From assembly GCA_028715785.1 (NCBI GenBank), contig JAQURC010000004.1, positions 92,662-156,661 on the forward strand: a DNA stretch of 64,000 nucleotides, read 5' to 3'. A program made the translations under genes and the position numbers. The notes below the pieces were generated by a model. That model searched no databases, was not told where the DNA came from, and saw nothing but the letters and a program-made list of their open reading frames with translations. Source of the stretch: Candidatus Omnitrophota bacterium (GTDB taxonomy: Bacteria; Omnitrophota; Gorgyraeia; Gygaellales; Profunditerraquicolaceae). Of this stretch, positions 574-50,943 are shown in pieces (within the stretch, counting starts at the first letter, position 1; every line of letters starts with the position of its first letter).

Positions 574-1119
574 ATGTTGACAAAAGCCCAAATACGTAGT
601 AAAATTCTTTTGAAATTAAAAATACAGAAGGAGGAAGACCGAAACCGAAAAAGTAAGCTCATTAAAGACAAACTTTTAAGGAATAAGGTTTTTAAAAAGG
701 CGAAGATCGTCATGTTTTACATCGCTTTTGGTGGAGAGGTAAATACCGAAGAGATGATTAGGGAAGCTAAAAAAATAGGCAAGCTTATATGCGTGCCAAT
801 TTGCAGAAAAGATAGAGAAACCATGCAGCCAGCCATATTCGAAGATCACGCTAAATTAAAAAAAGGCCCTTACGGTGTTTTAGAGCCTGTAGCAGAGGCC
901 CTGGTTAAACCAGAAGACCTGGACCTTGTTATCGTGCCCGGAGTAGCCTTTGATAAAAAAGGCAGGCGCCTGGGCCGCGGCAAAGGCTGTTATGACCGTT
1001 TCTTAAACACTCTTTCTGATGCTGCCTCTTCCATAGGCCTGGCTTTCGATTTCCAAATCTTGCCCTTGGTCCCCACCACCAGTCATGATGTAAGCGTCAA
1101 ACAAATTATCTTCTCCTAA
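574..1119 (+). CDS. 5-formyltetrahydrofolate cyclo-ligase
   Basis: 181 aa. VPGVAFDKKGRRLGRGKGCYDRFL is the typical MTHFS C-terminal motif. Confidence 0.8.
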   Translation: MLTKAQIRSKILLKLKIQKEEDRNRKSKLIKDKLLRNKVFKKAKIVMFYIAFGGEVNTEEMIREAKKIGKLICVPICRKDRETMQPAIFEDHAKLKKGPYGVLEPVAEALVKPEDLDLVIVPGVAFDKKGRRLGRGKGCYDRFLNTLSDAASSIGLAFDFQILPLVPTTSHDVSVKQIIFS

Positions 1120-1166
1120 AAAACTCCTAAAAACTCTGACCAGCAAGGTTAAAAGGGAGGACAGAA

Positions 1167-2723
1167 ATGTTTCTTAACATAGTGGTACTGGTATTTATTG
1201 CCCTGGCCGCAGCATATTCCGGTTATTTCCTGAGAAAACATATCGCCGAGAAAAAACTAAAAAGCGCAGAACTTGAAGCCGAGCATATCCTGGAGGCAGC
1301 CAAGAAGGAGGTCCTGGATAAGCGCCGGGAAGCGGAGCTGGAAGCCAAAGATCTTTTATACCGCATGCGCCAGGATTTTGAACGGGAGATCAAAGACCGC
1401 AAGCTTGAGATTGTGAATCTTGAAAAGAGATTAACGCAGAAAGAAGAGAACATCGACCGCAGGCTGGACCTTTTAGAGAAAAAAGAAAAAGAGATCGACG
1501 CGCGCAATGATAATCTTAAGAAGCAGGAGGAGTCTTTAAAATTAAAAGATAGCCAATTGCACGCTTTAGTTGCCGAAGAAAAGGAAAGGCTGCAGAAAAT
1601 CTCTTCTTTATCGGCCGAGGAGGCAAAACAGATCCTGCTTAACCGCCTCAACGAAGAATTAAATAATGAAAAGGCGATATTCATCAAACGCCAGGAGGAA
1701 GAGGTGCGCAGTATCGCCGATAAGAAGGCCCGCGAGATTTTAAGCCTGGCGATCCAGCGCTGCGCGGCAGAGCATACCGTGGAATCAACCGTCAGCGTGG
1801 TAAATTTGCCCAATGATGAGATGAAAGGCCGGATCATCGGCCGCGAAGGAAGGAATATCCGCGCCCTGGAAATGGCTACCGGGGTAGATGTAATTATCGA
1901 CGATACGCCCGGGGCAGTGACCTTGTCCGGTTTTGACGCTGTGCGCCGCGAGATCGCCCGTTTAAGTTTAGAGAAGCTTATTTCCGACGGCAGAATTCAC
2001 CCCGGCCGCATTGAAGAAATTGTTGAAAAGACCAAAAAAGAGATGGATGAGAAAATCAAGGAGGAAGGGGAACGGGCTGCTTTTGAGTCCGGGATTAACG
2101 GCTTGCATCCGGAAATAATCAAGCTTTTAGGCCGGCTTAAGTACCGCACCAGTTACGGCCAGAACGCCTTGCAGCATTCAAAAGAGGTCTCCTTTTTATT
2201 GGGCATAATGGCTTCGGAACTGGGGCTTGATTTCAAGCTGGGCCGCAGGATCGGGCTTTTGCATGATATCGGCAAGGCGGTAGATCACCAGGTTGAGGGT
2301 ACTCACGCGAAATTAGGGGCGGAACTGGCTAAGAAGTATAATGAGAGCCCTGAAGTCGTTTCAGCGATTGAGTCGCACCATGAAGAAGCGCAGCCGCAAA
2401 GCATGTACGCAGTTTTAGCCGTAGCCGCCGATGCGGTAAGCGCCGCACGCCCCGGCGCCAGAAGGGAAACCCTGGAAATATATGTCAAGCGCCTGGATAA
2501 ATTGGAATCGATTGCCAACCTGTTTAAAGGGGTAGAAAAGTCTTTTGCCATCCAGGCCGGCCGGGAGATCCGCGTCATCGTGCAGCCGGAAAAAATAAGC
2601 GATAGCGAAGCAGTTACTTTGTGCAGGGATATACGTAAAAAGATCGAGGAGGGGATGGAATATCCCGGCCAGATAAAGGTTACGGTAATCCGCGAAACGC
2701 GCACTATTGAATATGCCAAGTAA
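1167..2723 (+). CDS. rny: Ribonuclease Y
   Basis: 518 aa. N-terminal TM helix, long coiled coil, KH domain ([28 protein letters not shown]) and HD domain (LLHDIGKA). SD aaaagggagg precedes the ATG. Confidence 0.9.
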
Positions 2724-2867
2724 TAAAATTGTGTAATGTGTAAAGTGTAATGCGTAATGCGGGTGTAAAGTAATTATGTGTAACGGAAAAAATAAGCCTT
2801 TTGCATTACACAATAAAACATTACACCTACATTACACGTTACACAGGTAACATTAAACAAAATAAGT
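2724..2867 (+). repeat. Intergenic array of GTGTAA(T/A)G direct repeats (left half) mirrored by (C/A)TTACAC repeats (right half); long imperfect palindrome between rny and the ymdB-like gene
   Basis: Read directly: gtgtaatgtgtaaagtgtaatgcgtaatgcgggtgtaaag…cattacacaataaaacattacacctacattacacgttacac. Confidence 0.6.
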
Positions 2868-3647
2868 ATGAATATTTTATTTATCGGAGATATCGTCGGC
2901 AGCCCGGGCAGAGAGGCGATTAAAAAATTAGTCGGCCCCTTAAGGCGGGATTTACAGATAGATTTTGTGATTGCCAACGCGGAAAATGCCTCCGGCGGTT
3001 CAGGGATTACCTCTAAGGTGGCCGAGGAGCTTTTTTCCTGCGGGGTAGACGTGCTTACTTCCGGCGACCATATCTGGAAGAAGAGCGAAATCTTTGAGTT
3101 GATTAACCGTGAGGAAAGGATTTTACGGCCGTTGAACTTTCCCGTTGGTGCGCCCGGGCGGGGGGCCGCGGTATTTAAAACCCAAGGCGGCCTTAAGGTC
3201 GGAGTGATCAATGTAAATGGCCGGGTTTTTATGGAGGCCCTGGAGTGCCCTTTTAAAACCGCACTTGCCGCCAGTGAAGAGCTGGCAAAAGAAACCAAAA
3301 TTATTATCGTGGATATTCACGCGGAGGCGACTTCTGAAAAAGTCGCCTTGGGCTGGTACCTGGACGGAAAGGTCTCGGCTGTTTTTGGCACGCATACGCA
3401 CATCCAGACCGCCGATGAAAAGATCCTGCCCAAAGGCACGGCATACTTAACCGATGCGGGTATGACCGGCCCTTATGATTCAGTAATCGGCAGAAGGGTT
3501 GAGGATGTGCTTACCCGTTTCTTAAGTTCCATTCCGGTTAAGTTTGAGGTAGCCCAGGAAAATATCCAGCTGCATGGGGTCCTGGTTGAGATAGACGAGA
3601 AAACCGGTAAGGCAGCCTCGGTCTTAAGGATACAGAAAAAACTTTAG
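2868..3647 (+). CDS. YmdB-like metallophosphoesterase (2',3'-cyclic-nucleotide phosphodiesterase family, TIGR00282-like)
   Basis: 259 aa. MNILFIGDIVGSPGR N-terminus plus GDH and GTHTH metal-binding motifs. Conserved rny-ymdB synteny as in Firmicutes. Confidence 0.8.
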   Translation: MNILFIGDIVGSPGREAIKKLVGPLRRDLQIDFVIANAENASGGSGITSKVAEELFSCGVDVLTSGDHIWKKSEIFELINREERILRPLNFPVGAPGRGAAVFKTQGGLKVGVINVNGRVFMEALECPFKTALAASEELAKETKIIIVDIHAEATSEKVALGWYLDGKVSAVFGTHTHIQTADEKILPKGTAYLTDAGMTGPYDSVIGRRVEDVLTRFLSSIPVKFEVAQENIQLHGVLVEIDEKTGKAASVLRIQKKL

Positions 3648-5540
3648 ATGAATAAAAATAAGCCGATGATTAAGATGGGCCGGGTTTTATCTTTCCTGAT
3701 TTTCTCTTTATTTTTTCTAAACGGCTTATGCGTTGCCCAGGTGCCGGATGAGCTGGAATTCAATCTGGATTTGGGCTCTCCTGCAATTCCCGCGCCTAAA
3801 ATATACAAATCCAACATCGATTTAAGCGGCAGAGGTATCCATCGCGATACAACCTGGCCGCAAACGGTAGCGGTTAAAGAAGCCTTAGATACCTGGCAGG
3901 CGGATTTGGGTTTTGGCAATTTTTACCGTATCCAATACAATCTTTGGGATGTTCAACAGCTCTCCAATAACAAAACCGCGCAAGAAAAACTATTAAATAA
4001 CTACGAAGAAGTTATCAAGAAAATCAGTGAAAGCGGCGGGACGGTAATCCTTGATTTATTCGGCACTCCCCATGGCTTAGGCAGGGTCCTTGACAAGAAC
4101 AGCGCTCCGCATAATTTAAAAGAATATAAGGAACTGGTCAAAAATACTATCCGCAGGCTGAGCTGCGAGAAAAAATATAATATCTGGTATGAGGTCTGGA
4201 ACGCGCCGGACCTGGAGGATTTCTTTCTGGGGGAAAGGTCAGAGTACTTTGCTCTTTACCGCAGCGTAGCCGAAGCAATAAAGGAGCTGCGCCAGGAAAC
4301 TAAAATACATATACCTCTGGGCGGGCCGTCGGTAAGCGCCTGGTTCAGGAACCTCCAGCCCAATAACATACTTTCGCCTGAAGGCAGCCTGATTTATGAG
4401 TTGATAAAATATTGTTACAGTTACCGGCTGCCCCTGGATTTTATCTCCTGGCACGCTTATTCCAGCGATCCGCAGGAGGAAAAACAGGACACTATTTATA
4501 ATAAACCTTTTGTTAAACTCATCCGCGAGTGGTTAAGTTACTTCCATTTTGACAGCAATATGCCCTTGGTTATCGATGAATGGAATTTTGACGCCTCCGC
4601 CAATATTCTGCCGGAAAGAGGCAGGAATGCCTATATTTGCGCCAGCTACATTCCGGCGCGGCTTAAAAACATGCAGGAGGCCCGGATTGATTATCAAACC
4701 TATTTCTGCCTTGAGGACTTTGGAGGCAGCAAAGGCGGACCGGCCAGGAACCTGGGTGTTTTTTCATTTGACCTGGCGCATTCGGAATCCAAAGGTTATG
4801 CCAAATCCAGCTACAATATTTTCCGCATGCTCAATCTCCTGGGGCAGGATTTATTTACCGCCGCAGTTAATGATGATTTTGTCGGGGTAATCCCCACCAA
4901 GTCACAGGATTATCTGGCCATACTTATTTATAATTATATCGACCCGCTTGCGGCAATGAATTATTTATCCCGCAATATAGTTTATTTAAACGGCAATGAC
5001 CGGAAATCATTATTAAACATCGTAAAATCCGACAGGATGGAAAAGGTCCTTTCCGGCCATCTGGATATTGCCACCTTGCGGCTTGGCGCTAAGGCAAAAG
5101 GAATGCTTGGCCGCTCAATAGAGCTGCAAAATTCAGTAAATAAGTTTTCCGTAACCAATCGCAAATTAAAAATTTCTCTTAAAGGCTTAAAAGATATTTA
5201 TGTCCTTAGTAAATATACTGTAGATAGCAAATGCAGCCGGGATTGCGAATTTAAATCCACGGAAGAGAAGGATGTAGATTTTAATCAGGATTATGTTGAG
5301 ACGGCGGAATTGAGCCCTTATTCAGCACAGCTTTTAGTTTTTAAGAAAAAACCTGCGCCGCCTACAGTTTTACCGGCTGAAGCAGGGCCAGAGGAAAAAC
5401 CTGTTCCGCCGCCACCTTTAGCTGGCGGAAGCCAAACCACGGTCTTGCCGGCCGAAGTAAAGGCGCAGGAGAGGCCCGCTGAAATAAAGCCGGCAGAGAA
5501 GGACCCTCTTAAAGAGACAAAAAATGCAGAAAACAAGTAA
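3648..5540 (+). CDS. Secreted clan GH-A-like (GH39/GH5-like) protein with Pro/Glu/Lys-rich C-terminal tail; possibly catalytically altered
   Basis: 630 aa. Signal peptide (MIKMGRVLSFLIFSLFFLNGLCVAQ). YEVWNAPDL sits where clan GH-A enzymes have the acid/base NEP. VIDEWNF is a candidate nucleophile region. The C-terminus is a PAPPTVLPAEAGPEEKPVPPPP low-complexity tail. Confidence 0.5.
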   Translation: MNKNKPMIKMGRVLSFLIFSLFFLNGLCVAQVPDELEFNLDLGSPAIPAPKIYKSNIDLSGRGIHRDTTWPQTVAVKEALDTWQADLGFGNFYRIQYNLWDVQQLSNNKTAQEKLLNNYEEVIKKISESGGTVILDLFGTPHGLGRVLDKNSAPHNLKEYKELVKNTIRRLSCEKKYNIWYEVWNAPDLEDFFLGERSEYFALYRSVAEAIKELRQETKIHIPLGGPSVSAWFRNLQPNNILSPEGSLIYELIKYCYSYRLPLDFISWHAYSSDPQEEKQDTIYNKPFVKLIREWLSYFHFDSNMPLVIDEWNFDASANILPERGRNAYICASYIPARLKNMQEARIDYQTYFCLEDFGGSKGGPARNLGVFSFDLAHSESKGYAKSSYNIFRMLNLLGQDLFTAAVNDDFVGVIPTKSQDYLAILIYNYIDPLAAMNYLSRNIVYLNGNDRKSLLNIVKSDRMEKVLSGHLDIATLRLGAKAKGMLGRSIELQNSVNKFSVTNRKLKISLKGLKDIYVLSKYTVDSKCSRDCEFKSTEEKDVDFNQDYVETAELSPYSAQLLVFKKKPAPPTVLPAEAGPEEKPVPPPPLAGGSQTTVLPAEVKAQERPAEIKPAEKDPLKETKNAENK

Positions 5541-15449: not shown

Positions 15450-16307
15450 ATGAATATAAACGACTTAAAGAGTAATGATGAAATCGCCTGGTGCCCCGGC
15501 TGCGGGGATTTCGGAATTTTAAATGCCTGTAAAAAAGCCCTGGTTGCTATTGATAGACAGCCCAAGGATATTTTATTTGTCTCCGGGATCGGCCAGGCAG
15601 CCAAGCTTCCGCATTATATAAGGTGCAATTGTTTTAACGGCCTCCACGGCCGGGCGCTGCCTGCTGCCGTCGGCGCAAAGATTGCCAACCATAATTTAAC
15701 CGTAATTGTTACTACCGGAGACGGGGATTGTTACGGCGAAGGAGGCAACCATCTCCTGCATAATATCCGCAGGAATGTGGATATAACCGTTATTGTTTGC
15801 AATAATCAAATTTACGGCCTGACTAAGGGGCAGGCTTCACCGACTACGGACCTAGGATATGAAACCAAGGTTCAGGTTGATGGCGTAATCTTGGAACCTT
15901 TGCATCCGCTGGAGATGGCGATTGCCTTAGGCTGCGGATTCGTTGCCCGGGGATATTCAGCCGATTCCGAGCACCTTTCCTGGCTGATAACCGAAGGGAT
16001 AAAACATAAAGGGTTTTCCTTAATTGACGTATTACAGCCTTGCGTTAGCTTTAATAAAAAAAATACTTATGAATGGTATGCCAAGCGGGTATATAAAGTA
16101 AATGCCGATGCCTCATATAACCCCCAGGATAAGGCCGCTGCATATCAAAAAGCGGCAGAGTGGGGGGAGAGGATCCCGATTGGTTTAATTTATCGGCAGG
16201 AAAAAAAGACATATGAAGATAGAAGGGGTTTAAATGAAAGCAATCTTTTGATCGACGAAGATATCAAAGATATGGATATCCGTAAGGAGCTTGGAGAATT
16301 TTTCTAA
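15450..16307 (+). CDS. 2-oxoacid:ferredoxin oxidoreductase beta subunit (KorB-like)
   Basis: 285 aa. WCPGCGDFG, GDGD and GLTKGQASPTT TPP-binding region. Confidence 0.85.
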   Translation: MNINDLKSNDEIAWCPGCGDFGILNACKKALVAIDRQPKDILFVSGIGQAAKLPHYIRCNCFNGLHGRALPAAVGAKIANHNLTVIVTTGDGDCYGEGGNHLLHNIRRNVDITVIVCNNQIYGLTKGQASPTTDLGYETKVQVDGVILEPLHPLEMAIALGCGFVARGYSADSEHLSWLITEGIKHKGFSLIDVLQPCVSFNKKNTYEWYAKRVYKVNADASYNPQDKAAAYQKAAEWGERIPIGLIYRQEKKTYEDRRGLNESNLLIDEDIKDMDIRKELGEFF

Positions 16308-31795: not shown

Positions 31796-32703
31796 TGAAG
31801 ATAGAATTGAGAAGAAAATTTCCCCTGATTATCGCGGTTGTCTGCGGGATTGCGGCGATAATATTATTAAATCTTTATCTTAGAAAAAGAGAAGTTGAAA
31901 TTTGGGATAAAATGAGGCAGCAGGAGCAAAGGGCTTTGGCTGCCAAACCGAAAGTAACAATGGGGGTTGTGCTGGTGGCAAAAAGAGAAATTCCGGTGCA
32001 GACGCCGATTACTGCCGAAGACCTTACGTTTAAACAGGTGCCGGTGGAATATATCCAACCCGGCGCAGTTACTTCTCTTGAACAGGTTATCGGCCAAATT
32101 GCTTCAGGCCCGATCGGCGCCGAAGAACAGATACTTAGCACAAAGCTCCTTCCTCCCGGCAACGTCGGCAAAACCCTTTCGGAAATTACCCCTGAAGGCA
32201 AAAGGGCAGTAACTGTTTCAGTGGACAACCTTTCCAGCATCGCCGGTTTGCTAAAGCCCGGCGATTACGTGGATATATTTGCCCTTATTGCTTTGCCTAA
32301 GAAGGCTACGCCGCAGGCAAAGGAAGAACCGGGTCCGCGCTTAATTTCCCTTTTTCAAGGCATTCAAGTATTAGCCATGGGGAATGAGCTGGTCATCTCA
32401 AAAAATAAAACAAAAGAAAGCAGCACTGCTGCCGCCGCGCAAACCGTTACTTTTGCGCTTACGCCCCAGGAAGCGGCATTGCTTTCTTTTGTCCAGGAAC
32501 ACGGCAAGATCAAATTAGCCCTGCGTTCCTCGCAGGACACCAAGGTTGAGGCGGTTGCCCCGGCTGACTGGGACGCCCTGTTGAATTATTTATCTACCAG
32601 CCAGGGCGAGAAAGCCGGTTTGGAAGGCCAGCCGGTAGTCGAGATATACCGCGGATTACAAAAGGAAGTCATTCCTTTATCCGCCTCAAGTAAAGAAAAA
32701 TGA
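31795..32703 (+). CDS. cpaB: Flp pilus assembly protein CpaB/RcpC
   Basis: 302 aa. N-terminal TM plus SAF-like domain. Position upstream of the secretin is typical of cpaB. Confidence 0.75.
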   Translation: MKIELRRKFPLIIAVVCGIAAIILLNLYLRKREVEIWDKMRQQEQRALAAKPKVTMGVVLVAKREIPVQTPITAEDLTFKQVPVEYIQPGAVTSLEQVIGQIASGPIGAEEQILSTKLLPPGNVGKTLSEITPEGKRAVTVSVDNLSSIAGLLKPGDYVDIFALIALPKKATPQAKEEPGPRLISLFQGIQVLAMGNELVISKNKTKESSTAAAAQTVTFALTPQEAALLSFVQEHGKIKLALRSSQDTKVEAVAPADWDALLNYLSTSQGEKAGLEGQPVVEIYRGLQKEVIPLSASSKEK

Positions 32704-34352
32704 AAAATATTTTCAAATACGCATTTTTACTGTTTTTTATTTTGTTTGCCGGCCGGGCCTATTCCAGCGAACCGGAGCTTATAACTTTATATGTCTCCGA
32801 AGTCAAGATTTTTTCCGTAAATGCGCCCACCCGCGTGGTGATCAATAATCCCAATATCATCGATGTCACTTCAATAAGCAAAGAAGATATGGTGGTAGCG
32901 GCCAAGAATCCGGGCACAACCAATTTGCTCTGGTGGGATGCAGCCGGGCAGCACTCATTGCGGATAGAGGTTTTTCTGGAAGATATGAATTTGGTTAAAA
33001 AGAGGATAGACGCCCTGTTAAAAGAATTAAACCTTCCCGATGTCCTTACGCGGCCCTCGGATAACGAGGGTAAGGTTTTGCTTTTAGGAAGCGTAAAGAC
33101 GCCGGCGGACTTAGAGCGCCTGGATGTCGCGTTAAGTTCGCTGAAAGGAAAAACCGCCAATCTTATCCAGCTAAAAGAAGAAAGGGCGGTAGTAGAGATT
33201 AAAGTGCAGGTTCTGGAATTAAATAAAGATGCTACCTCGACTTTAGGCCTCAGTTTTCCGGGCTCGATTGATATTACCGAAATAGGCTCACCGGGGTTAG
33301 CTGCTGCAGGCACAAAGTGGGGAAAACTATTTAAAGTATCGAACGTAAACCGCGATGCGTTCACTTTAACATTGGATGCCCTGGTCCAGGAAGGTAAGGC
33401 GCGCATACTTTCCCAGCCCCAGCTTGCTTGCCAGAGCGGCAAGGAAGCTGAGTTATTAGTAGGCGGAGAAAAGCCCATATTCAATACTACCATAGCTGCT
33501 ACTACCGGAGCCAGCGGTACAAATATAGAGTATAAAGAATACGGCATTAAGTTAAAGATAAAACCCACGGTAACCGAAGATAAACAGATTAAGCTGGCAT
33601 TGAATGTGGAAGTCAGTGACGTGGGCACAGCGGACACCATCGGTACCACTACCACAGGCACGACTACGGCCAAGGCATACCCCTTAACCAGGCGCAACGC
33701 ATCCACCCAGCTTTTTCTTAATGACGGCCAGATGATGGGTATAGGCGGGTTGACAAAACAAAAGTCCGAGGAGGATATCCGCAAAACCCCTTTCCTGGGG
33801 GATGTGCCGGTGTTAGGCGTATTGTTTAGAAAAAAAACAACCAAAGTAGGCGGCGGTGAAGGGGAGAGAGGCGATACAGAACTGTTAATTACGCTTACCC
33901 CCACGATTATAAAAGAACCCGCGCTTGCCGAAGCGGCATCCAAGACACAACCGCTCCCTTCAACCACCGGCATGCCTATAGTCAGAGAAGGCGCTAAAAT
34001 TGCAGCGCCTCCGCCCCCCGCTAAAACCAAAGTAATTTCTTCTGCTAAAGAAGTAGCCAGCCAGGCGATGTCCGAATACATGCGCGAAATTACCAAACGC
34101 ATACAGGATAATTTCGTTTATCCTTGGGCAGCTAAACAAGACCAAATGCAGGGTTCGGTAATATTGGGGTTGCGTCTTGATTCTACGGGCGCGCTCTTAG
34201 AGGCCCAGGTCAAACACTCGTCGGGATACAGCATATTTGACGAGAACGCAGTAAATATAGTTAAAAAGCTGTCTCCTTATCCCCCGTTTCCTGCGCAGCT
34301 CAATAAAAAGGAACTCTGGATAGATATCCCGATTGTCTATAAACTGGAATAA
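32700..34352 (+). CDS. cpaC: Tad secretin CpaC/RcpA with C-terminal TonB_C-like domain
   Basis: 550 aa. Secretin core (GQMMGIGGLT…TPFLGDVPVLGVLFRKK…TELLITLTPTII). C-terminal about 90 aa (FVYPWAAKQDQMQGSVILGLRLDSTGALLEAQVKHSSGYSIFDENAVNIVKKLSPYPPFP) matches the TonB C-terminal pattern. Confidence 0.8.
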   Translation: MKNIFKYAFLLFFILFAGRAYSSEPELITLYVSEVKIFSVNAPTRVVINNPNIIDVTSISKEDMVVAAKNPGTTNLLWWDAAGQHSLRIEVFLEDMNLVKKRIDALLKELNLPDVLTRPSDNEGKVLLLGSVKTPADLERLDVALSSLKGKTANLIQLKEERAVVEIKVQVLELNKDATSTLGLSFPGSIDITEIGSPGLAAAGTKWGKLFKVSNVNRDAFTLTLDALVQEGKARILSQPQLACQSGKEAELLVGGEKPIFNTTIAATTGASGTNIEYKEYGIKLKIKPTVTEDKQIKLALNVEVSDVGTADTIGTTTTGTTTAKAYPLTRRNASTQLFLNDGQMMGIGGLTKQKSEEDIRKTPFLGDVPVLGVLFRKKTTKVGGGEGERGDTELLITLTPTIIKEPALAEAASKTQPLPSTTGMPIVREGAKIAAPPPPAKTKVISSAKEVASQAMSEYMREITKRIQDNFVYPWAAKQDQMQGSVILGLRLDSTGALLEAQVKHSSGYSIFDENAVNIVKKLSPYPPFPAQLNKKELWIDIPIVYKLE

Positions 34353-34354
34353 TA

Positions 34355-36532
34355 ATGGCACAGGTTATTTCTATCTTCAGCACCAAAGGCGGCGTAGGCA
34401 GGACTTTTATTGTCACCAACCTTGCCATTGCCTTGGCGCAGAAATTAACCAAAGGCAAAAAAGTCTTGCTTTTTGATACGGATTTGCAGCTGCCGGGCAA
34501 TATGGCGATGCTTTTGAATTTAAAGCCGAAAAAGCCCCTGATCGATCTTATCCCCGATTGGCGCAAAGGCAATTATACACCTTCCCAGATTGGCGAATAT
34601 ATCCTCCATTATCCGGCTACAAACATGGATCTGCTTCCATTAATATTAACTGCCGAAGAAAGGCCGTATGTAGATGAAAAATTTATCTCTTGCGTCCTGA
34701 GCGACTTAAGCAAAGAATATGAATTTATCGTCTGCGACAGCGGCAGGACATTTAATAAGGCGCTGGTATCTATCCTTGAGCAGACAAATTTGATTTTACT
34801 GGCGATTAACCCGGATATCCTTTCGGTTTATCAGGCAAAAGAAGATGTAAAGACGCTGCAGTCGCTGTATTTTCCCGTAAAGATGATGCGGGCGGTTCTA
34901 AACCGCGCGGAAAGCACGGGCGCGGTATCCTGGCAGGAGGTAAGGGCGGCTTTGCCCTGCGACATAATCAGCCGTATCCCGTCGGAAGGCAGGGCTGTGG
35001 GTTCGGCCTTAAACCGCGGGATACCTGTTGTGCTGGATAGCCCGCGATCGCGGGTAAGCATTGTGCTGGATAAATTAGCCGAGGATTTACTCGCTCACCC
35101 TGATTTTTTTATCTCCCATAAAAAATTGGAAGCAGCTGTTCCGGCAGGGGAAAAAGAGAAAATTTTTTTAGAAGAGGATATCTCCTCTCTGGAATCGCTT
35201 TCCTTAGGCGGCCGTAAGCCCGCAGAGAGAAGACTTACCCGCGAAGAAAAAATAGATGAGTTAAAACAGCGGGTGCATAAGCACGTTATTCAGGAGCTGG
35301 ATTTACGGCGGCTGGACCGCGTAGCCGGGGACCTGACAAAAATCGGGGAATTGCGCCAGAAGACAATGAAAGCGATTAATACTGCGCTAACCGATGAAGC
35401 AGGGGCGCTTATTTCCTCGCGCGAGCAGCGGGAGAGCCTTATAAAGGAGATCAGCGATGAGATTTTGGGCCTGGGCCCTTTAGAAGACTTGATCAATGAT
35501 CCCGGAATTACCGATATTTTAGTTAACAATAAGAGCCAGATCTACATCGAAAAGCACGGCAGGTTAGAGTTAGTTTCCAAGCGTTTCGTATCCAATGACC
35601 AGGTGCGCCAGATAATCGAGCGTATTATTGCCCCCTTAGGCAGGAGAGTGGATGAGTCGGTGCCGATGGTTGACGGCCGGCTTTCCGACGGCTCGCGCGT
35701 TAACGCGATTATTCCTCCGCTTTCCCTTACCGGGCCTACGCTTACGATTAGAAAATTCAGCCAGGAGCGGCTGAAGGTTAATGATTTGGAGCGGTTGAAT
35801 GCCTTAAATAATACAATGGCGGAATTTCTTAAGGCCTGTGTTGTCTGCCGCAAGAATATAATTATTTCAGGAGGCACCGGTTCGGGAAAAACCACGGTTT
35901 TAAATGTGCTCTCGGAGTTTGTTCCCGACGGAGAGCGGGTTATTACTATTGAAGATGCCGCGGAATTAAAACTTCACCATCAGCACTGGGTGCGCCTGGA
36001 GTCGCGGCCGCCGAATATCGAGGGAAAAGGGGCGATTTTCGTGCATGATTTGTTCAGGAATTCCCTGCGTATGCGGCCCGACCGGATTATCATCGGGGAA
36101 TGCCGTGGCCAGGAGGCTCTGGATATGCTTCAGGCGATGAACACCGGCCACGACGGCTCAATGACCACTATTCATGCCAACTCCACCCAGGATGTCTTGG
36201 CGCGCCTTGATTCCCTGATCCTGATGAGCGGTATCGAGATTCCCCTGCGGGCAATCCGCGAAATGATCGCCTCAAGCATTGATATGATCGTCCATACCGC
36301 CCGTTTTTCCGACGGTTCAAGGAAGATTACCCAGATAACGGAAGTTACCGGCATGGCCGATGAGATGCATATCGGATTAAATGATATCTTTATTTTTAAA
36401 CAGTCCGGCATTGACAGCCAGGGAAAAATTCAGGGAGAATTTAAAGCCACGGGAATATTGCCGACCTTTTTAGACGATATACGCAAAACCGGCAGTAATT
36501 TTTCAGAAGAAATATTCAAAAAGAAAGAGTAA
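34355..36532 (+). CDS. Fused TadZ/CpaE-like ParA/MinD ATPase + TadA/CpaF secretion ATPase
   Basis: 725 aa. N-terminal deviant Walker A (IFSTKGGVGRT). C-terminal domain has Walker A GGTGSGKTT, Asp box and His box (TIHANS) of the T2SS/T4SS ATPase family. Confidence 0.85.
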   Translation: MAQVISIFSTKGGVGRTFIVTNLAIALAQKLTKGKKVLLFDTDLQLPGNMAMLLNLKPKKPLIDLIPDWRKGNYTPSQIGEYILHYPATNMDLLPLILTAEERPYVDEKFISCVLSDLSKEYEFIVCDSGRTFNKALVSILEQTNLILLAINPDILSVYQAKEDVKTLQSLYFPVKMMRAVLNRAESTGAVSWQEVRAALPCDIISRIPSEGRAVGSALNRGIPVVLDSPRSRVSIVLDKLAEDLLAHPDFFISHKKLEAAVPAGEKEKIFLEEDISSLESLSLGGRKPAERRLTREEKIDELKQRVHKHVIQELDLRRLDRVAGDLTKIGELRQKTMKAINTALTDEAGALISSREQRESLIKEISDEILGLGPLEDLINDPGITDILVNNKSQIYIEKHGRLELVSKRFVSNDQVRQIIERIIAPLGRRVDESVPMVDGRLSDGSRVNAIIPPLSLTGPTLTIRKFSQERLKVNDLERLNALNNTMAEFLKACVVCRKNIIISGGTGSGKTTVLNVLSEFVPDGERVITIEDAAELKLHHQHWVRLESRPPNIEGKGAIFVHDLFRNSLRMRPDRIIIGECRGQEALDMLQAMNTGHDGSMTTIHANSTQDVLARLDSLILMSGIEIPLRAIREMIASSIDMIVHTARFSDGSRKITQITEVTGMADEMHIGLNDIFIFKQSGIDSQGKIQGEFKATGILPTFLDDIRKTGSNFSEEIFKKKE

Positions 36533-38808
36533 TGAACTTCTTCCGCAAAAACCTACCGACAAACCGCCGCAGCCAGATCGCCGTAATTATCACTTTTGTC
36601 ATCGCGGTAATTTTTTTATTCATGGCGGTATTTATAAATTTAAGCAAGGTAAGCCAGGTTAAGACCACCACCAGCACTGCCGCGGATAAGGCCGCTTTAA
36701 GTCTGGCCTCGCAGTTGGGCAGTATGAGCCATTATTATAAGGATAAGGTGTTAGGGGGGCAAACAGAGAAGACCGGGTATGGCTGGTTAGCGTTGATGTT
36801 GGTTTTAGTCGGTTCCATTGTAGGAGGAATTTTAATAAGTCCGGTAGTTCTTCTTACCGGATTGGGCTTGTTAGTTTCGATGTCAATGTCTACGTCTATG
36901 CTTGAAGGGATAAGCGATAGATTCAATAAAGAGATGACTACCTATACTGCCTTAAGGGAGAGCGCTCTGTTTGGGGCATTGCTTTCTACGCAGAGCGATG
37001 ATGTTGAGTTAAAAAGGGTAGGGGCGGGTATTTTCCGCGACGAGGTAACCGGCAAAGACTATGATTTAAGCGCTATCCCTGAAATGCGCAATGCGAATAA
37101 AGTAGGCAGGTTCGCTGCCTGGTATTATGCCTTGCGGCAGCCGCTGGTGAGCGATGATGATTTAAAAGAGGCCTTGGATAAATTTAAAAACGGGCTCAAG
37201 AGATTTATCGCTATTGACGAATGGGACAATACAAAGTGGAAGATTAGCAGGCTTTCTTATTTTATCGAGCCGGTTCCGGCGCAAAATTCGGCTAATTACG
37301 AAATTACCTGTACTTCCTGCCCTGCTTGGGTTAAAGATATTGCCCACAAACAAATAGCAATCATGAAAATAGACGCAACTCAACCGGACGGACCAAGCCA
37401 GATTACCGGCGGTTTTTTAAAAGATAAGTTTTTAAGCTTATTGAGCCGATTGAGCTATGCATATGGGCTAACCTTTTGCAGTAAACCTGAAACGTTTACC
37501 CAAACAGCAATCTGTGACGATGTAGTTAAGCTGATGGAAGACTTGAGGATGTTTTTATTCAGAAGTAAAGAGCTTGTGGATACGCCTATGACTGAGGCAT
37601 TAAACAGCACAACGCAATGGCTTCCTTTTTTTTACGATTCTGCGCAGCATAATCTGGATAAAAGCAGTATAGATGGGGATTTGGAGGATGACGCTTATGA
37701 GCGTTTGACTCGCGACCAGAATACTATCAATTCTTGGATTACAGAGTTGGAAAAATTAAATAATACCACAATTAAGCCCGAAATAATAAATAACCATGGA
37801 GGTTATTGCGAACAAGGAAGGCCGGATAGCGATGTGGTTAGTAATTGTTTTACTGCTTTAGAATCTTGCTATTGTTGGCATACTGAATGCGGTGAATATA
37901 GTTGTTGGAAGGTATGCGATGGAAGTAAATGCAAGACATCGCTTCCTGCCCGATGGCATGGCAATTATGGAACTTGCACAGGCAGCGGATTCAACCATAC
38001 CACGCATCCGGTCTGTCAAAAAGGGGATTTATACCAAGCGCAGCCTGATTATCTTGGTTCTAATTGGTGCAATAAGTTGAGGTCTGTCCCTTGTGTGTCT
38101 CATAATGATAGCTGCGATCAATGCAGTCCGCCTCCCACCAGTACTGTAATGGATAATTCCTACAATTTTCAAGGCCAGATGTCCTGGGAGAATACCTCCG
38201 GCCCGACCGAAGTCGAGCAAGCGCTCAAAATTCTGCGGGCCTTGAATTATGATATCGGTAGTATAAAAAAGAGTATCGAGGAGTATGTAGATGCGCAAAT
38301 AAAACATCTTACTCCGACGTGTTTACCGGGATTGCCATGCGCCCTTAAAATAAGAAACGAAATCGTTTATGCCTGGAAGGATAAGCCTAAGTCGGATGGC
38401 AGCCAGCAATTCTCTCACTTTGTGCAGGTAGCGATAGAAGGTTATCCAGAGAAGCTTCCTTATATTAGCGAAACTGTGAAGTGGTTAGGGCAGAAGAAGA
38501 CCTGGAAATTAGAAAATGCCGCAGGAGATCTTAAAATAATGGTCCGGCGTTACGATCAAGACCAGCCGACGGATGTAGGGAAAACAGATAAAGGGTGGGA
38601 GCTTAAGCGCAGGAAAACACCCGGTGCCGAAGAATTTTCTCCCAAACAATTAGAGGATATAGTAGCGGATATCCAGGCCGACGGCAAAATAGACTCAACC
38701 CAGAATTCTGTCGACTCAATTTTAGGTTACGCGATTACCAGCTGCAGCAAGGCGCATTACGGCCCGGAAAAAAGAGATATTTATATAAGTGGAACTAAAT
38801 GTGAGTAA
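36532..38808 (+). CDS. TadG-like pilus-associated protein with large Cys-rich extracellular domain
   Basis: 758 aa. N-terminus (RRSQIAVIITFVIAVIFLFMAVFINL) resembles the Tad N-terminal domain of TadE/TadG. About 24 Cys concentrated in residues 420-530. It ends in tandem TAA TAA. Confidence 0.5.
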   Translation: MNFFRKNLPTNRRSQIAVIITFVIAVIFLFMAVFINLSKVSQVKTTTSTAADKAALSLASQLGSMSHYYKDKVLGGQTEKTGYGWLALMLVLVGSIVGGILISPVVLLTGLGLLVSMSMSTSMLEGISDRFNKEMTTYTALRESALFGALLSTQSDDVELKRVGAGIFRDEVTGKDYDLSAIPEMRNANKVGRFAAWYYALRQPLVSDDDLKEALDKFKNGLKRFIAIDEWDNTKWKISRLSYFIEPVPAQNSANYEITCTSCPAWVKDIAHKQIAIMKIDATQPDGPSQITGGFLKDKFLSLLSRLSYAYGLTFCSKPETFTQTAICDDVVKLMEDLRMFLFRSKELVDTPMTEALNSTTQWLPFFYDSAQHNLDKSSIDGDLEDDAYERLTRDQNTINSWITELEKLNNTTIKPEIINNHGGYCEQGRPDSDVVSNCFTALESCYCWHTECGEYSCWKVCDGSKCKTSLPARWHGNYGTCTGSGFNHTTHPVCQKGDLYQAQPDYLGSNWCNKLRSVPCVSHNDSCDQCSPPPTSTVMDNSYNFQGQMSWENTSGPTEVEQALKILRALNYDIGSIKKSIEEYVDAQIKHLTPTCLPGLPCALKIRNEIVYAWKDKPKSDGSQQFSHFVQVAIEGYPEKLPYISETVKWLGQKKTWKLENAAGDLKIMVRRYDQDQPTDVGKTDKGWELKRRKTPGAEEFSPKQLEDIVADIQADGKIDSTQNSVDSILGYAITSCSKAHYGPEKRDIYISGTKCE

Positions 38809-38988
38809 TAAAAAGTTATTTTTCTTCAGCCTCTTATATTTTTTTTTCTATTCGGAGTCGGCTTAGCGCAAGCGGAATCCGCAATTGATATCCTCGTTTT
38901 CTCGCCTCATCCCGATGATGAAACCCTCGCCTGTGGCGGAACCATCCTTAAGGCAATCCAAGAAAATAAAAAGGTAAAAATTGTTTTT

Positions 38989-41982
38989 TTGACTAACGGA
39001 GATGGCAATATAGCCGAGGAACTCCCTGCGCCCGAAGATTATATTTCTTTGGGAGAAAAACGCCAGCAAGAAGCATTGCGGGCAACCGGAAAACTCGGCC
39101 TTAAGGAGGAAGATATAATATTTTTAAGTTACCCCGATACCGGCTTATCTTCCCTTTGGAGAGAAAGCTACAATGTTAATCGCGAGAATTCAAAAGCTGC
39201 CCCTTATAATTTCTATAAATCAAAAACTACAAAAAAGATTTTTTCTCCTTACAAGATAACTTATAATCATGCAAAGAAGGGATGTACACGGGAGAATCTT
39301 CTATTAGACATTAAGGATATTTTAAAGGAATATAAGCCAAAAAGTATTTATACACCTCATCTTTTAGATGGTTCTCCCGACCATCAAGCAACTACCAGGC
39401 TGGTGTTTGATGCTTTAAATGAATTGGCGGGCACTGGTAGACATAGCTGGATTGGTTCTTTGGGGGTCTCCTATTATCTTATTCATCCCCCGGTTATGGA
39501 ATCAGAACAAGGATATTCTATTTGGCCGGATAAAAATTCGGCATTACTGGATGCCCCCGCCGTCTTTACCGAGAAGCCTCCCCGCAGTGAAAATATCGTT
39601 AGTTTTAAACAAAACAAAAGAGAGGCACTGGAAGAATATCGCACGCAACTGGATACAGAAGAAAAGATTTTCCTGGAGAGTTTTATTAAAGATAACGAAA
39701 TATTCTGGGATGCGCCCCCAGATAAACTAAGCCACCTTAGTGAGGTTAGGGATGAATGGGAAAGAGTTGGCAGGATAATGCAGAATCAGGGATATAATGT
39801 AAATTTTGGAGTAATCGCTGATATCGCTGATTCCCTGGAAAATATGCGTAACCCTTTAGCTAGAAAGGGCCGGATGTATTCCGAGCATTCTTCTTTGGTT
39901 GCGGAATTGGTTCTTTCCGCGGTTACCGGGATGGATAAAACAGGGGTAATACCGGTAGTCAAGCATTTTCCCGGTTTGGGCTCCAATAATGCCGATACGC
40001 ATATTTCACTACCAGTGATAAAAAAATCAAAAAAAGAACTTTATAAACGCGACCTGGTACCCTTTAAAGAGCTGATTAAAAAAAATGTGCATTTCTGGGT
40101 AATGAGCGACCACGCCATTTATCCATATTTAAGCCAAGAACCGGCCTCCTTGTCTTATGCAGTCCAAACTCAGGTTTTGCGGAAAAAACTGGGTTTTGAA
40201 GGCGTAATCATTACCGATGAACTTTTAAATATGCAGGCGATTGAAGAATACGCAAGAATTGAAAAAATTAAAGAACCCTATATCGGCGAGATTATCGTAA
40301 GGGCGTTTCAGTCTGGGGCGGATATTGGCCTATTTTATGTAGATTCTCCCCAACAGGCAAAAAAGGTGATAATAGAGGTAATCAATTCGGTCAAGCAGGC
40401 AGTGGTTAAAGGAAAAATCAAAGAAGAGGAAATAGATGCTTCGGTCAGAAGGATACTTAAAGACAAAGAAAGAATATTTAAACAGCCGCTAGAGCATTTT
40501 CTCAAAGAGATGACCTTGAAAGAAAAAATTTCCCAGAAACTTTTTACAGATGCCTACACTTCTAAAGAAGAAGATACCCGGGAATGGTTAGAAATATTAA
40601 AAGAGTATAATCTTGCGGGCATATTGCCGCGCAATTCTAAAATTATACCACAACTACAAAATAACTCTAAGATCCCGTTATTTATTGCTACCCAGTATGA
40701 AGGAGGGCTAATTACCTATGGCCATAATTTTTGTACGCGCAGTGCGTATATAATGGGCAAGGAATCTGAGCGATTGATTCTTAAGGCAGGGATTAAGATC
40801 CCCTCCCTATCTTTTAGGAAAACAAAAATCAGGCATTTATATAGTGAACGACAAGCATCCTCTTTATTTTCAAAATTAAATAAAGCGAGGCGCCAGGCGT
40901 TGGCCGCTTCTTTGCTTAATAGCATTGATAAACTGATTACGGCCTGGTCAGAGTTGGAGGAAAAAGGATATACCGCGCCAAACCCCAATCATCTTTCCCC
41001 GTTAACGATCTACTCTAACGGAAGATTTGAGATCAAACCGTATGAGGATATGGCGGATTTACCCGTCGCCTGGACAAAAAAATTCCCCGATGAGGATACT
41101 GCCCTGTGCGCTTATTATTTGTTTAAGAAGACATTTGATGATTGGCCGGATAGCCAAAAGAGAGCAGAGGAGGCAAAGAGTATAGTTTCCCGCCTGGTTT
41201 CTTTCAGAGAAAGAGTGGAAGAACAAACAAGCAAAATAGATAAAAGCCGGATACGCATCCTCTGTTTGGCTGGCCATCCTGATGATGAAGATGGCGAAGC
41301 GCTTGCCTATTTCAGCAAGAAATTCAATTGTGAAACTTATGTGCTTTTAGCAACGCGCGGGGAAGGAGGAGAAAATAAAATCGGCTCTGCCCGCAAGGAA
41401 AAATTGGGACTTTTACGCACCAAAGAGATGGAAAAAGCCGCGTCAATTTTAGGGGTAAAAAAAGTATATTATTTAGGCAAGACAGATTTTGGTTATACTT
41501 CTTCTGTGGAAGAGGTATTTAAGCAGTGGGGCAAAGAAGATACATTAGAAAAACTAGTTTATTTTATCCGCCTGATTAAGCCGCAGATTATTATTACTAA
41601 GCACAATGAAGCTAACTCCAGGGAACACGGCCAGCATCAGGCTTTAATTATGTTGGCTAAAGAGGCGTTTGATTTAGCCGGCGGTCCAAGGGTTTACCCC
41701 GGGATGATTGCCGATGGGCGCTTGCCTTGGCAGCCGCTTAAGTTTTATCAAAGGGCTATAGAGATGAATGCTTTCCCAGTAAAAATTACAATTAATCCGG
41801 ATGAGTATATTTTTCCCGGAAATAAAACATACCGCCAAATTTCGATGGAGGCATTGAGACAACATCGCACCCAGGGGATATCCAAATGGTTCAAAGAGAC
41901 CGGAGATGTTTCTTATCAGTTAGTTGCATCTAAAGTTAAGCAAGTATGCCCGGAGGGTTCCTTCTTTGCGGGAATCAATTAA
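38989..41982 (+). CDS. Tri-domain enzyme: PIG-L/LmbE deacetylase - GH3 (NagZ-like beta-N-acetylhexosaminidase) - PIG-L/LmbE deacetylase; true start likely upstream (about 38801) via a frameshift
   Basis: PIG-L motifs (H)PDDE occur twice (ILVFSPHPDDETLACGG upstream in-frame; LAGHPDDEDGEALAY at the C-terminus). GH3 motif KHFPGLGSNNADTHISLPV. See the finding on the T9 frameshift. Confidence 0.65.
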   Translation: MTNGDGNIAEELPAPEDYISLGEKRQQEALRATGKLGLKEEDIIFLSYPDTGLSSLWRESYNVNRENSKAAPYNFYKSKTTKKIFSPYKITYNHAKKGCTRENLLLDIKDILKEYKPKSIYTPHLLDGSPDHQATTRLVFDALNELAGTGRHSWIGSLGVSYYLIHPPVMESEQGYSIWPDKNSALLDAPAVFTEKPPRSENIVSFKQNKREALEEYRTQLDTEEKIFLESFIKDNEIFWDAPPDKLSHLSEVRDEWERVGRIMQNQGYNVNFGVIADIADSLENMRNPLARKGRMYSEHSSLVAELVLSAVTGMDKTGVIPVVKHFPGLGSNNADTHISLPVIKKSKKELYKRDLVPFKELIKKNVHFWVMSDHAIYPYLSQEPASLSYAVQTQVLRKKLGFEGVIITDELLNMQAIEEYARIEKIKEPYIGEIIVRAFQSGADIGLFYVDSPQQAKKVIIEVINSVKQAVVKGKIKEEEIDASVRRILKDKERIFKQPLEHFLKEMTLKEKISQKLFTDAYTSKEEDTREWLEILKEYNLAGILPRNSKIIPQLQNNSKIPLFIATQYEGGLITYGHNFCTRSAYIMGKESERLILKAGIKIPSLSFRKTKIRHLYSERQASSLFSKLNKARRQALAASLLNSIDKLITAWSELEEKGYTAPNPNHLSPLTIYSNGRFEIKPYEDMADLPVAWTKKFPDEDTALCAYYLFKKTFDDWPDSQKRAEEAKSIVSRLVSFRERVEEQTSKIDKSRIRILCLAGHPDDEDGEALAYFSKKFNCETYVLLATRGEGGENKIGSARKEKLGLLRTKEMEKAASILGVKKVYYLGKTDFGYTSSVEEVFKQWGKEDTLEKLVYFIRLIKPQIIITKHNEANSREHGQHQALIMLAKEAFDLAGGPRVYPGMIADGRLPWQPLKFYQRAIEMNAFPVKITINPDEYIFPGNKTYRQISMEALRQHRTQGISKWFKETGDVSYQLVASKVKQVCPEGSFFAGIN

Positions 41983-49585: not shown

Positions 49586-49629
49586 ATTTCATCCCTTGTT
49601 GCGTCTATTGCGATAGAAAGGGGGTTTAG

Positions 49630-50136
49630 ATGAGCGCAAAAGAGATTTCGGCAGAGGTAGTGGCAATGAAGATTTTGTTGGTACGCGACAAGAAGGTAAT
49701 GTTGGATTCAGATTTGGCAAGCCTTTATGGAGTAGAAACAAAAAATTTGAATTTGCAGGTCAAGAGGAATATAAGGCGTTTTCCGTACGATTTCATGTTT
49801 CAATTAACCCAGGGAGAAACTTTGAGGTTGCAGAATGCAACCTCAAAGCGTGGTGGCCGCAGGTATTTGCCCTATGTTTTTACTGAACAAGGTGTAGCAA
49901 TGCTTTCTACGGTTTTGAATTCCGAACGAGCAATCCAGGTTAATATCGCTATTATGCGGGCGTTCGTAAAGTTACGAGAGGTTTTGTTAACGCATAAGGA
50001 TTTAGCGCAGAAACTTGAGGAATTGGAACGGAAATACCAATTGCATGAAATAGACATTCAGGTAATATTTGAGGCGATCAAGAAGTTGCTTGAGCCGCCG
50101 GATGAGCCTCCAAAGCCGAGATTTGGGATGAATTGA
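49630..50136 (+). CDS. ORF6N-domain protein (KilA-N/antirepressor-associated family), copy 1
   Basis: 168 aa. …KVMLDSDLASLYGVETKNLNLQVKRNIRRFPYDFMFQLT…RRYLPYVFTEQGVAMLSTVLNSERAIQVNIAIMRAFVKLRE matches the ORF6N pattern. Confidence 0.7.
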   Translation: MSAKEISAEVVAMKILLVRDKKVMLDSDLASLYGVETKNLNLQVKRNIRRFPYDFMFQLTQGETLRLQNATSKRGGRRYLPYVFTEQGVAMLSTVLNSERAIQVNIAIMRAFVKLREVLLTHKDLAQKLEELERKYQLHEIDIQVIFEAIKKLLEPPDEPPKPRFGMN

Positions 50137-50696: not shown

Positions 50697-50943
50697 ATCT
50701 TTACCTCCCTAAATATTTCTCTTTTTCCATTTAAAGTATAAATCATAATTCTAAAGTTGTCAAGGACAAAATGACTATTTTTATGACTATAAAGGATAGA
50801 TACTTCTCGGGGTCCCTTCGCCTAATCCCGCATGGATACGATCCTGTTCCCCGATTGGCTCGGAAACAGGGTCGTAATTAGTTTCCTTTTTATAGTTAGA
50901 TTCCATCTCCTGTTACGTCAGTTGCGATAGAAAGGGGGTTTAG

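Follow-up and report, generated by a model that had tools for sequence, protein, structure and literature searches.

A stretch of 64,000 nucleotides (nt) from a Candidatus Omnitrophota bacterium (assembly GCA_028715785.1, contig JAQURC010000004.1, positions 92,662 to 156,661 of the forward strand; hereafter the window, in whose coordinates positions are given) carries a Tad/Flp pilus operon. The gene considered here lies in that operon and encodes a predicted secreted enzyme that combines two LmbE/PIG-L de-N-acetylase domains with a NagZ-type GH3 module. The open reading frame (ORF) of this enzyme (the PIG-L frame) lacks a canonical start at its beginning, and the only canonical start upstream of its signal peptide lies in another frame, which meets the PIG-L frame within a run of nine T residues. 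A sequence-only reading of the window, made without database searches, had noticed this arrangement and had offered an assembly error, a slipped-strand phase-variation switch or programmed frameshifting as its cause. The junction comprises the following elements.

Positions 36532-38808, plus strand: the upstream gene, 758 amino acids (aa), with a weak TadE/G-like N-terminus (ORF list, Pfam and direct reading).
Positions 38801-38803, plus strand: GTG, the proposed true start of the enzyme gene, which shares bases with the final codons of the gene before it (GTGAGTAA) and is conserved in position in five lineages.
Positions 38801-38866, plus strand: the short zero-frame ORF, 21 codons (MSNKKLFFFSLLYFFFYSESA) and TAG, the product expected without slippage.
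Positions 38839-38847, plus strand: the slippery T9 run, the proposed slip site, where one U would be added to the mRNA or the ribosome would shift by -1 on U UUU UUU.
Positions 38848-38874, plus strand: the rest of the signal peptide, read in the PIG-L frame (LFGVGLAQA, by translation), with the AQA/ES cleavage site between 38874 and 38875.
Positions 38908-38922, plus strand: the HPDDE motif of LmbE/PIG-L domain 1, upstream of the TTG at 38989.
Positions 38989-38991, plus strand: TTG, the start chosen by the ORF caller, which is codon 39 of the mature protein.

Read directly, the junction is …AAATGTGAGTAATAAAAAGTTATTTTTCTTCAGCCTCTTATA-TTTTTTTTT-CTATTCGGAGTCGGCTTAGCGCAAGCGGAATCC…, and the T9 run, the double stop and the competing frames are all found where the sequence-only reading had placed them. 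The upstream gene ends with TAA at 38806-38808, which is followed by a second in-frame TAA at 38809-38811, and it shares one frame with the PIG-L ORF. The PIG-L frame stays open between 38812 and 41982, and its start encodes KVIFLQPLIFFFLFGVGLAQAESAIDILVFSPHPDDE (in the longer reading, KVIFLQPLIFFFLFGVGLAQAESAIDILVFSPHPDDETLACGG…); the first ATG, GTG or TTG after 38812 is the TTG at 38989, and of near-cognate codons only ATT at 38818 and ATA at 38836 precede it. The sole canonical start upstream of the signal peptide is the GTG at 38801, whose overlap with the upstream gene fits translational coupling. The GTG frame is one base ahead of the PIG-L frame, encodes VSNKKLFFFSLLYFFFYSESA and stops at a TAG at 38864. 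An ATG at 38799 was also considered as a start and was rejected, because a TGA follows it directly. When the gene was rebuilt with different run lengths, T7, T10 and T13 gave a product of ~1,060 aa, and T8, T9, T11 and T12 gave peptides of 21-29 aa; the earlier expectation that T8 or T10 would join the two frames thus stands for T10 (and extends to T7 and T13) but fails for T8, which ends as a 28-aa dead end. The T10 product has 1,060 aa and begins MSNKKLFFFSLLYFFFLFGVGLAQA/ESAIDILVFSPHPDDE…, the N-terminus of its mature part being ESAIDIL, and it contains the signal peptide and all domains. Two lysines, a hydrophobic core of ~17 residues and an AQA/E site are found in its reconstructed N-terminus, and the A/I-x-A motif before the cleavage site is kept in relatives as AQA, APA, TQA or IQA; by the -3/-1 rule, and not by a predictor, the enzyme is predicted to be exported. 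The T9 run is the sole homopolymer of at least nine bases in the window; T8 and A8 runs lie at 16056, 21032, 21616, 21948, 23011, 33830, 37626 and 40078. By itself it is unremarkable, because a zero-order estimate at the composition of the window predicts about one A or T run of that length in 64 kb; the argument against chance rests on the position of the run and on its conservation across five lineages, and not on rarity alone.

The TTG at 38989 is almost certainly internal and not the true start. The HPDDE motif encoded upstream of it is what we take, from knowledge of MshB and LmbE enzymes, to be the metal-binding and catalytic motif of domain 1. Among ~90 homologs, almost all of which belong to Candidatus Omnitrophota, the N-terminal residues are conserved in ~50, so that the conservation that the sequence-only reading had presumed for this segment is borne out; every distant homolog (45-56% identity) starts with an ATG and carries a signal peptide followed by D(I/V)L(I/V)FSPHPDDE. 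Since distant homologs share the N-terminus and two outgroup loci start in the ordinary way, the protein needs its N-terminus, and the frame break is derived. The ratio of non-synonymous to synonymous substitution rates (dN/dS), taken between the window and three close relatives, is 0.07-0.15 for the 38 codons at 38875-38988 and 0.13-0.18 for the rest of the gene, and the ORF is intact over 1,056-1,074 codons in the four close lineages. The low dN/dS and the HPDDE motif argue that 38875-38988 is read in the PIG-L frame under purifying selection and that the gene is not decaying. It is thus hardly credible that the enzyme is expressed only from the TTG at 38989, or that the gene is decaying, with the in-frame residues upstream being a relic. 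Such starts are indeed reported by gene callers for three database entries; however, the relic would have to include the signal peptide and HPDDE, its 38 codons are as constrained as the remainder of the gene or more so, gene calling in the lineage L003 uses a GTG (3001) and not the TTG, and the candidate in the lineage L005 is a different one. The three entries (P0001, P0002 and P0003) begin at an internal TTG or GTG (P0001 and P0002 at the TTG). All three starts drop the signal peptide, and those of P0001 and P0002 also drop the HPDDE of domain 1; because of these omissions, both the location and the activity of the proteins of this clade would be mispredicted.

The DNA of the relatives was fetched for the three closest database proteins, all of which are called in N-terminally truncated form, and two further relatives were found. 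The comparison covers five lineages, namely the window together with the identical Logan contig L004, the pair L001/L002 (90% protein identity to the window, with 99.985% identity between the two assemblies), L005 (an NCBI metagenome-assembled genome made with megahit; 89%), L003 (from JGI; 83%) and L021 (also from JGI), in which the junction resembles that of L001 and the enzyme is only 57% identical. The five assemblies come from different samples and pipelines (Logan, JGI, NCBI metagenome-assembled genome by megahit, and ENA), and L004 and L001/L002 represent independent re-assemblies with the same run length. All five lineages have a GTG that overlaps the upstream TAA (GTGAnTAA), with the PIG-L frame shifted by -1 from it, and in none of them does the PIG-L frame offer a canonical start ahead of the signal peptide. 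The run is a T9 located 38 nt from the GTG in four lineages and a T10 located 37 nt from it in L003, and the zero-frame stop lies at offset 63 in 4/5 lineages and at 93 in L003. The four colinear lineages share an unchanged block of 13 bases, TATA+T9; the signal-peptide DNA that flanks the run is only 59-66% identical between the window and the other lineages, and the neighboring T7 runs are not conserved, as they come and go among lineages. In L003, a tenth T has been gained in the run and one base has been lost upstream of it (GTTATTTTTC to GTTTTTTTC); this pair of indels restores the need for a -1 shift, not an in-frame gene. By contrast, the outgroups L024 and L025 (52-53% identity) have ordinary ATG starts after spacers of 22-62 nt, and in L025 the enzyme gene directly follows the ATPase gene, with no TadG-like gene between them. 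Because the outgroups have ordinary starts, the broken-frame arrangement must have arisen within one clade, where it has been retained. Variable sites between the GTG and the run fall at the third position of the GTG frame in 7/11 cases, against 4/12 and 4/12 for the other two frames, which is the expected direction; with only 35 nt from GTG to run, this codon-position test is weak and has far too few sites to decide.

These comparisons bear first on the possibility of a sequencing or assembly error, in which the true run would be T10. Long homopolymers are error-prone in some sequencing technologies, and an error of this kind was among the causes proposed by the sequence-only reading. The -1 requirement, however, is carried by all five assemblies, L003 would need a T11, and the window shows no further gene with a frame break at a homopolymer, which would be the signature of an error-prone assembly; among ~20 other overlapping or abutting gene pairs in the window, none sits on a homopolymer and ATG starts are normal. 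An error is thereby effectively excluded. Because the broken-frame layout is kept in five related assemblies that are independent of each other, the T-run is, as judged from these sequences, a real recoding site and not a sequencing error, and it is probably a selected one.

The sequence-only reading had also suggested a switch at the level of DNA, in which replication slippage would toggle the run between T9 (OFF) and T10 (ON), the consensus being the OFF majority. Contingency loci classically carry a homopolymer at the 5′ end of a gene with a surface-associated function, the length of the run does differ between lineages (T9 and T10), and the purifying selection reported above is compatible with such a switch, because phase-variable genes are also under purifying selection. 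On the other hand, the five consensus sequences are all in one non-zero phase and none is ON, the T10 of L003 is paired with an upstream 1-nt deletion that turns the gene OFF again, which a simple switch does not explain, and independent assemblies of the same populations agree on the run length. Phase variation is thus disfavored, and we consider it decidedly unlikely, even though it and transcriptional slippage are not mutually exclusive.

Whatever the cause, either ribosomes that started at GTG 38801 have to enter the -1 frame in or close to the run, or translation has to begin at a codon other than a canonical start. Initiation at a non-canonical codon of the PIG-L frame (ATT at 38818 or ATA at 38836) would dispense with a frameshift altogether, and near-cognate codons are available in that frame in the window, L001, L005 and L021. 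Before the run, the PIG-L frame of L003 contains no ATT, ATA or ATC, with only a CTG after the run; furthermore, a start at ATA 38836 would yield a 13-residue leader without a charged n-region, the PIG-L frame upstream of the run would place Q, P and H residues inside the would-be hydrophobic core, and nearly all confident genes of the window begin with ATG. This mode of initiation is therefore very improbable. An even smaller probability attaches to read-through of the upstream TAA, which would fuse the TadE/G-like protein to the enzyme. The two ORFs do share one frame in all five lineages; given that the stop and the GTG overlap, this only restates how the PIG-L frame lies at -1 to the GTG. 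Against a fusion stand the two consecutive TAA codons in the window and the predicted cleavable signal peptide directly after them, the separate genes with spacers in the outgroups, the absence of an intervening TadG-like gene in L025, and the use of TAA as an ordinary stop elsewhere in the window.

What remains is slippage at the T-run itself, and that either RNA polymerase or the ribosome slips there is reasonably probable. A run of at least nine bases (T9 or T10), two ORFs that a one-nt change would join, and conservation of both the run and the frame break are all present, as is usual for slippage sites. In the proposed scheme, the gene for the secreted LmbE-NagZ(permuted)-LmbE enzyme would start at GTG 38801, which overlaps the stop codon of the Tad-operon gene before it; the first ~15 codons, covering the n-region of a Sec signal peptide and the larger part of its hydrophobic core, would be read in the GTG frame, and the rest, after the T9, in the -1 frame. 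RNA polymerase would slip on the T9 template and add one U, giving U10 messages, so that the full-length 1,060-aa protein would be made only from decoding events that shift at the run, and unshifted messages would give a hydrophobic peptide of 21 residues.

A -1 slip of the ribosome on U UUU UUU, with the mRNA unchanged, would yield the identical protein. Both the window and L003 have this heptamer in phase with the GTG frame, any T run of at least nine containing an in-phase X XXY YYZ heptamer in that frame, and the zero-frame stop follows soon after the run, at offset 63. At the E. coli dnaX site, frameshifting is stimulated by a Shine-Dalgarno sequence and a hairpin; neither is seen at the Omnitrophota run. 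No conserved RNA structure was found downstream of the run (RNAalifold -0.9 kcal/mol, 3 pairs, no covariation), which includes hairpins and pseudoknots, nor was single-sequence folding near the run unusual (z = +0.27), and no Shine-Dalgarno-like element is visible by reading the 5-15 nt upstream of it. A search for an intrinsic terminator at the T-run also found none. These negative results argue against both a classical stimulated ribosomal frameshift site and a role of the run as a terminator. Moreover, a heptamer would suffice for the ribosome, yet the run is kept at nine or more while the neighboring T7 runs vary. Because the run is kept at a length that is relevant to the polymerase, beyond the seven bases that a ribosomal site needs, RNA polymerase, which the sequence-only reading had not named, is ranked above the ribosome. 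Recoding at the run, programmed or tolerated, is thus best supported, so that of the three proposals of that reading programmed frameshifting comes nearest, with RNA polymerase as the likelier agent; we favor transcriptional slippage tentatively, at somewhat less than an even chance for the polymerase as the agent, and regard purely ribosomal frameshifting as unlikely.

Precedents for such an event are documented. Slippage of bacterial RNA polymerase becomes significant at about nine A or T residues, and Thermus thermophilus dnaX uses an A9 (PMC1088944). This gene and E. coli dnaX (A AAA AAG) illustrate that a slip of the polymerase or of the ribosome can lead to the same outcome (PMC1088944); unlike in the Omnitrophota enzyme, recoding of dnaX yields a shorter second product. 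A close parallel is Shigella flexneri mxiE (and spa13, mxiA and spa33), where overlapping ORFs are joined by one non-templated U, the longer functional product requires the slip, and the gene belongs to an operon of an envelope-spanning machine; the slippage efficiencies reported are 15-55% (PMC4256274). The two ORFs of mxiE are united through a single additional nucleotide at a run of Us (PMC1088944; PMC5009743), the site being given as “the run of Us” with no length (PMC1088944). By contrast, the Omnitrophota site lies in the region that encodes a signal peptide, 38 nt from the start, and its unshifted product is a 21-aa peptide with no folded domain; it is a well-supported candidate for a homopolymer slippage site of a known class, known from sequence alone and from an uncultivated organism. 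[quoted passage not shown] According to passages of PMC3017870 that cite Tamas 2008 (PMC2567471) and Wernegreen 2010 (PMC2877537), Blochmannia and Buchnera contain frameshifts in poly-A/T runs of at least nine that are kept between species, in ORFs that are undegraded and under purifying selection, with slippage as the rescue. The genomes of these endosymbionts are extremely AT-rich, contain more than 100 such tracts each and are subject to strong drift, whereas the window has 44% GC and a single tract of at least nine in 64 kb. For this reason, the T9 tract would be an exception and not a by-product of composition. No relevant literature on frameshifting or recoding in Omnitrophota was found.

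Several points weigh against a selected slippage site. The case for slippage is built on sequence logic and precedent, and some AT-rich bacteria seem to suppress slippage (PMC1088944). The five lineages are related, so their shared state could have been inherited once instead of being selected repeatedly, and the sole evidence for active maintenance is the one compensated indel pair in L003. The conservation of the GTG is confounded by the overlapping Cys-Asp/Glu codons of the upstream gene, and run lengths were read from consensus contigs, which carry no length heterogeneity of the populations. Furthermore, L021 has a mosaic appearance and perhaps should not be counted as independent. In this contig (Ga0180015_1002349, minus strand, 806-4200), identity to the window and L001 is 83-90% across the junction and over the sequence on either side of it (the 3′ end of the TadG-like gene and the first ~100 nt of the enzyme gene), and the rest of the enzyme falls to the 57% given above and is shorter (880 aa). 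This pattern suggests either a locus that is recombinant or mosaic or a contig that is chimeric. It was the one relative added by a DNA-pattern scan of metagenome contigs, among 17 mostly unrelated PIG-L genes; a protein-pattern scan of such contigs for relatives gave no matches, and a search for junction-bearing contigs with the C-terminus of the upstream protein gave two weak or partial matches, the contig examined ending before the junction.

The operon around the junction is of the Tad/Flp type and consists, in order, of genes for a peptidyl-prolyl isomerase, RcpC/CpaB, a secretin-TonB_C protein, a TadZ-TadA fusion, the weak TadE/G-like protein, the enzyme, a TPR protein and a DUF192 protein. 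Membership of the enzyme gene in a Tad/Flp operon follows from its RcpC/CpaB, secretin, TadZ/TadA ATPase and TadE/G-like neighbors, whose Pfam matches are RcpC (4.4e-25), Secretin (1.5e-40), CbiA/ParA with T2SSE (4.9e-62) and Tad (3.3e-4, weak), and the synteny of enzyme and Tad genes is kept in the relatives at 52-53% identity. The description of the upstream gene as TadG-like can be retained only in a weakened form, because it scores 21.4 bits against Tad (PF13400), below the cut-off of 22.3. Neighboring genes of the operon overlap by 1-4 nt and many are without a Shine-Dalgarno sequence; since such overlaps and weak or absent Shine-Dalgarno sequences are common there, a start at GTG 38801 agrees with the habit of the operon. 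Two of the genes are unusual fusions that also occur in the loci of relatives, namely the secretin with a C-terminal TonB_C domain (32700-34352) and a TadZ-like (CbiA/ParA) domain joined to a TadA-type T2SSE ATPase (34355-36532). The TadE/G-like gene (36748-38726, compared with L001, L003 and L005) is far more divergent between lineages than its neighbors: only its 5′ end, a block of ~500 nt and the last ~80 nt can be aligned by blastn, whereas the ATPase and enzyme genes that flank it align at 84-90% identity across these lineages.

The domains of the enzyme itself are arranged as follows.

Positions 38875-41982, plus strand: the mature tri-module enzyme, 1,035 aa and stop (translation, Pfam, AlphaFold and dN/dS).
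Positions 38893-39414, plus strand: LmbE/PIG-L de-N-acetylase domain 1.
Positions 39763-40458, plus strand: the C-terminal two-thirds of the NagZ-type GH3 barrel (Pfam positions 106-314), with the KHFPGLGSNNADTH motif and the invariant D448.
Positions 40480-40809, plus strand: the N-terminal third of the GH3 barrel (MTLKEKISQK … IPLFIATQYEGG), placed after the rest of the barrel.
Positions 41251-41772, plus strand: LmbE/PIG-L de-N-acetylase domain 2, with the invariant H801-P-D-D-E805.

The combination of two LmbE-type domains with a NagZ-type glycosidase, which had been deduced from the translation, is confirmed by Pfam, where PIG-L matches two stretches (2e-50) and the GH3 N-terminal domain matches at 2.6e-45. 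For both LmbE/PIG-L domains, the fold and a Pfam score above the gathering threshold support membership in PF02585; domain 1 has H12-P-D-D-E16, and in domain 2, besides the invariant HPDDE, H918 and H921 are nearly invariant. The GH3 module matches PF00933 and has its fold and the NagZ motif K-H-(F/I)-P-G-x-G-x4-D-(S/T)-H. In an alignment of 50 sequences, the NagZ motif and both HPDDE motifs are invariant across the family, and an AlphaFold model built on this alignment is confident, with a predicted local distance difference test score (pLDDT) of 86.7 and a predicted template modeling score (pTM) of 0.73.

According to profile matches and the model, the (β/α)8 barrel of this NagZ-type GH3 module is circularly permuted. 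Its segments do not follow the canonical order, as positions 1-105 of the profile come only after 106-314. In an alignment with YbbD, mature residues 298-540 correspond to 134-376, and a family profile of residues 536-645 matches residues 11-106 of YbbD/NagZ (E = 3e-4), the top three PDB matches all being YbbD. Once the two pieces are re-ordered, they give a single colinear match to PF00933 positions 2-314, and the segment that corresponds to the N-terminal third is modeled as β-α-β-α-β-α. Pfam found no GH3 match in the isolated segment after the GH3 domain, for which a single sequence is too weak and the family profile is needed. The permutation (39763-40809, mature residues 297-645) holds in ~50 family members, with an invariant EGG motif. 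A GH3 subfamily has reportedly been described with a “permuted domain topology,” which by its title seems to be a permutation of domain order; in our judgement from that title, the permutation within the barrel is distinct from it. Thus, the enzyme differs from NagZ/YbbD GH3 proteins and from LmbE-family deacetylases (MshB, BshB and those acting on diacetylchitobiose) in that three modules are united in one exported protein, the barrel is permuted and the gene lies within a Tad pilus operon. The remodeling of a polymer of N-acetylglucosamine (GlcNAc) beside the pilus, which had been suggested for this enzyme, is reasonable and is supported by the synteny with the Tad genes; it is plausible that the enzyme deacetylates and trims a GlcNAc-containing polymer at the pilus, the substrate being putative. 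Many homologs (P0004, P0005, P0007 and others) have an additional conserved C-terminal domain of ~230 aa (…GGNLVVF…YGKGSYIYT…KNLANM…), which is absent from the window protein and its close relatives.

Elsewhere in the window, a giant ORF extends from an ATG at 52011 on the plus strand past the window end at 64000 (at least 3,996 aa, with an N-terminal membrane- or signal-like segment), and this gene accounts for the apparent absence of listed ORFs after ~51.5 kb. Identical 22-nt leaders (ttgcgatagaaagggggtttag) at 49608-49629 and 50922-50943 precede the ATG codons at 49630 (168 aa) and 50944 (170 aa), which suggests that these two genes are tandem paralogs with a duplicated ribosome-binding region. 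A scan of the window against Rfam detected tRNAs only.

If the polymerase or the ribosome slips as proposed, the T-run would act as an attenuator that keeps the amount of the enzyme at a small share of that of the upstream pilus proteins, to which its translation is coupled; the efficiency of the slip would be such that most ribosomes handed over by the upstream pilus gene fail to make the enzyme. This would suggest that the level of an enzyme that modifies the cell wall or other glycans is deliberately set far below that of the pilus structural proteins translated with it. The hydrophobic core of a signal peptide, in which poly-Phe of variable length would be harmless, may be a low-cost place for slippage sites to evolve. 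It is also tempting to speculate, as a possibility that we regard as rather doubtful, that the frameshift is actively selected as an attenuator, possibly responsive to transcription conditions, of an undescribed class of enzymes that has become fixed in the Tad operons of Omnitrophota and acts on a GlcNAc polymer. The enzyme would then deacetylate and trim the peptidoglycan of the cell itself or of a host, or a glycan like poly-N-acetylglucosamine or chitin, where the pilus crosses or contacts a cell wall, and the L003 locus, in which a “repairing” tenth T is accompanied by the loss of an upstream base, would be a footprint of this selection. The junction provides a recoding candidate with phylogenetic support in an uncultivated phylum; because its genome has a moderate GC content and long homopolymers are rare in it, it may offer a better case for selected slippage than the drift-prone endosymbionts. 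The tri-module enzyme with its permuted NagZ barrel, in turn, is a conserved, unstudied component of the Tad systems by which Omnitrophota are thought to attach.

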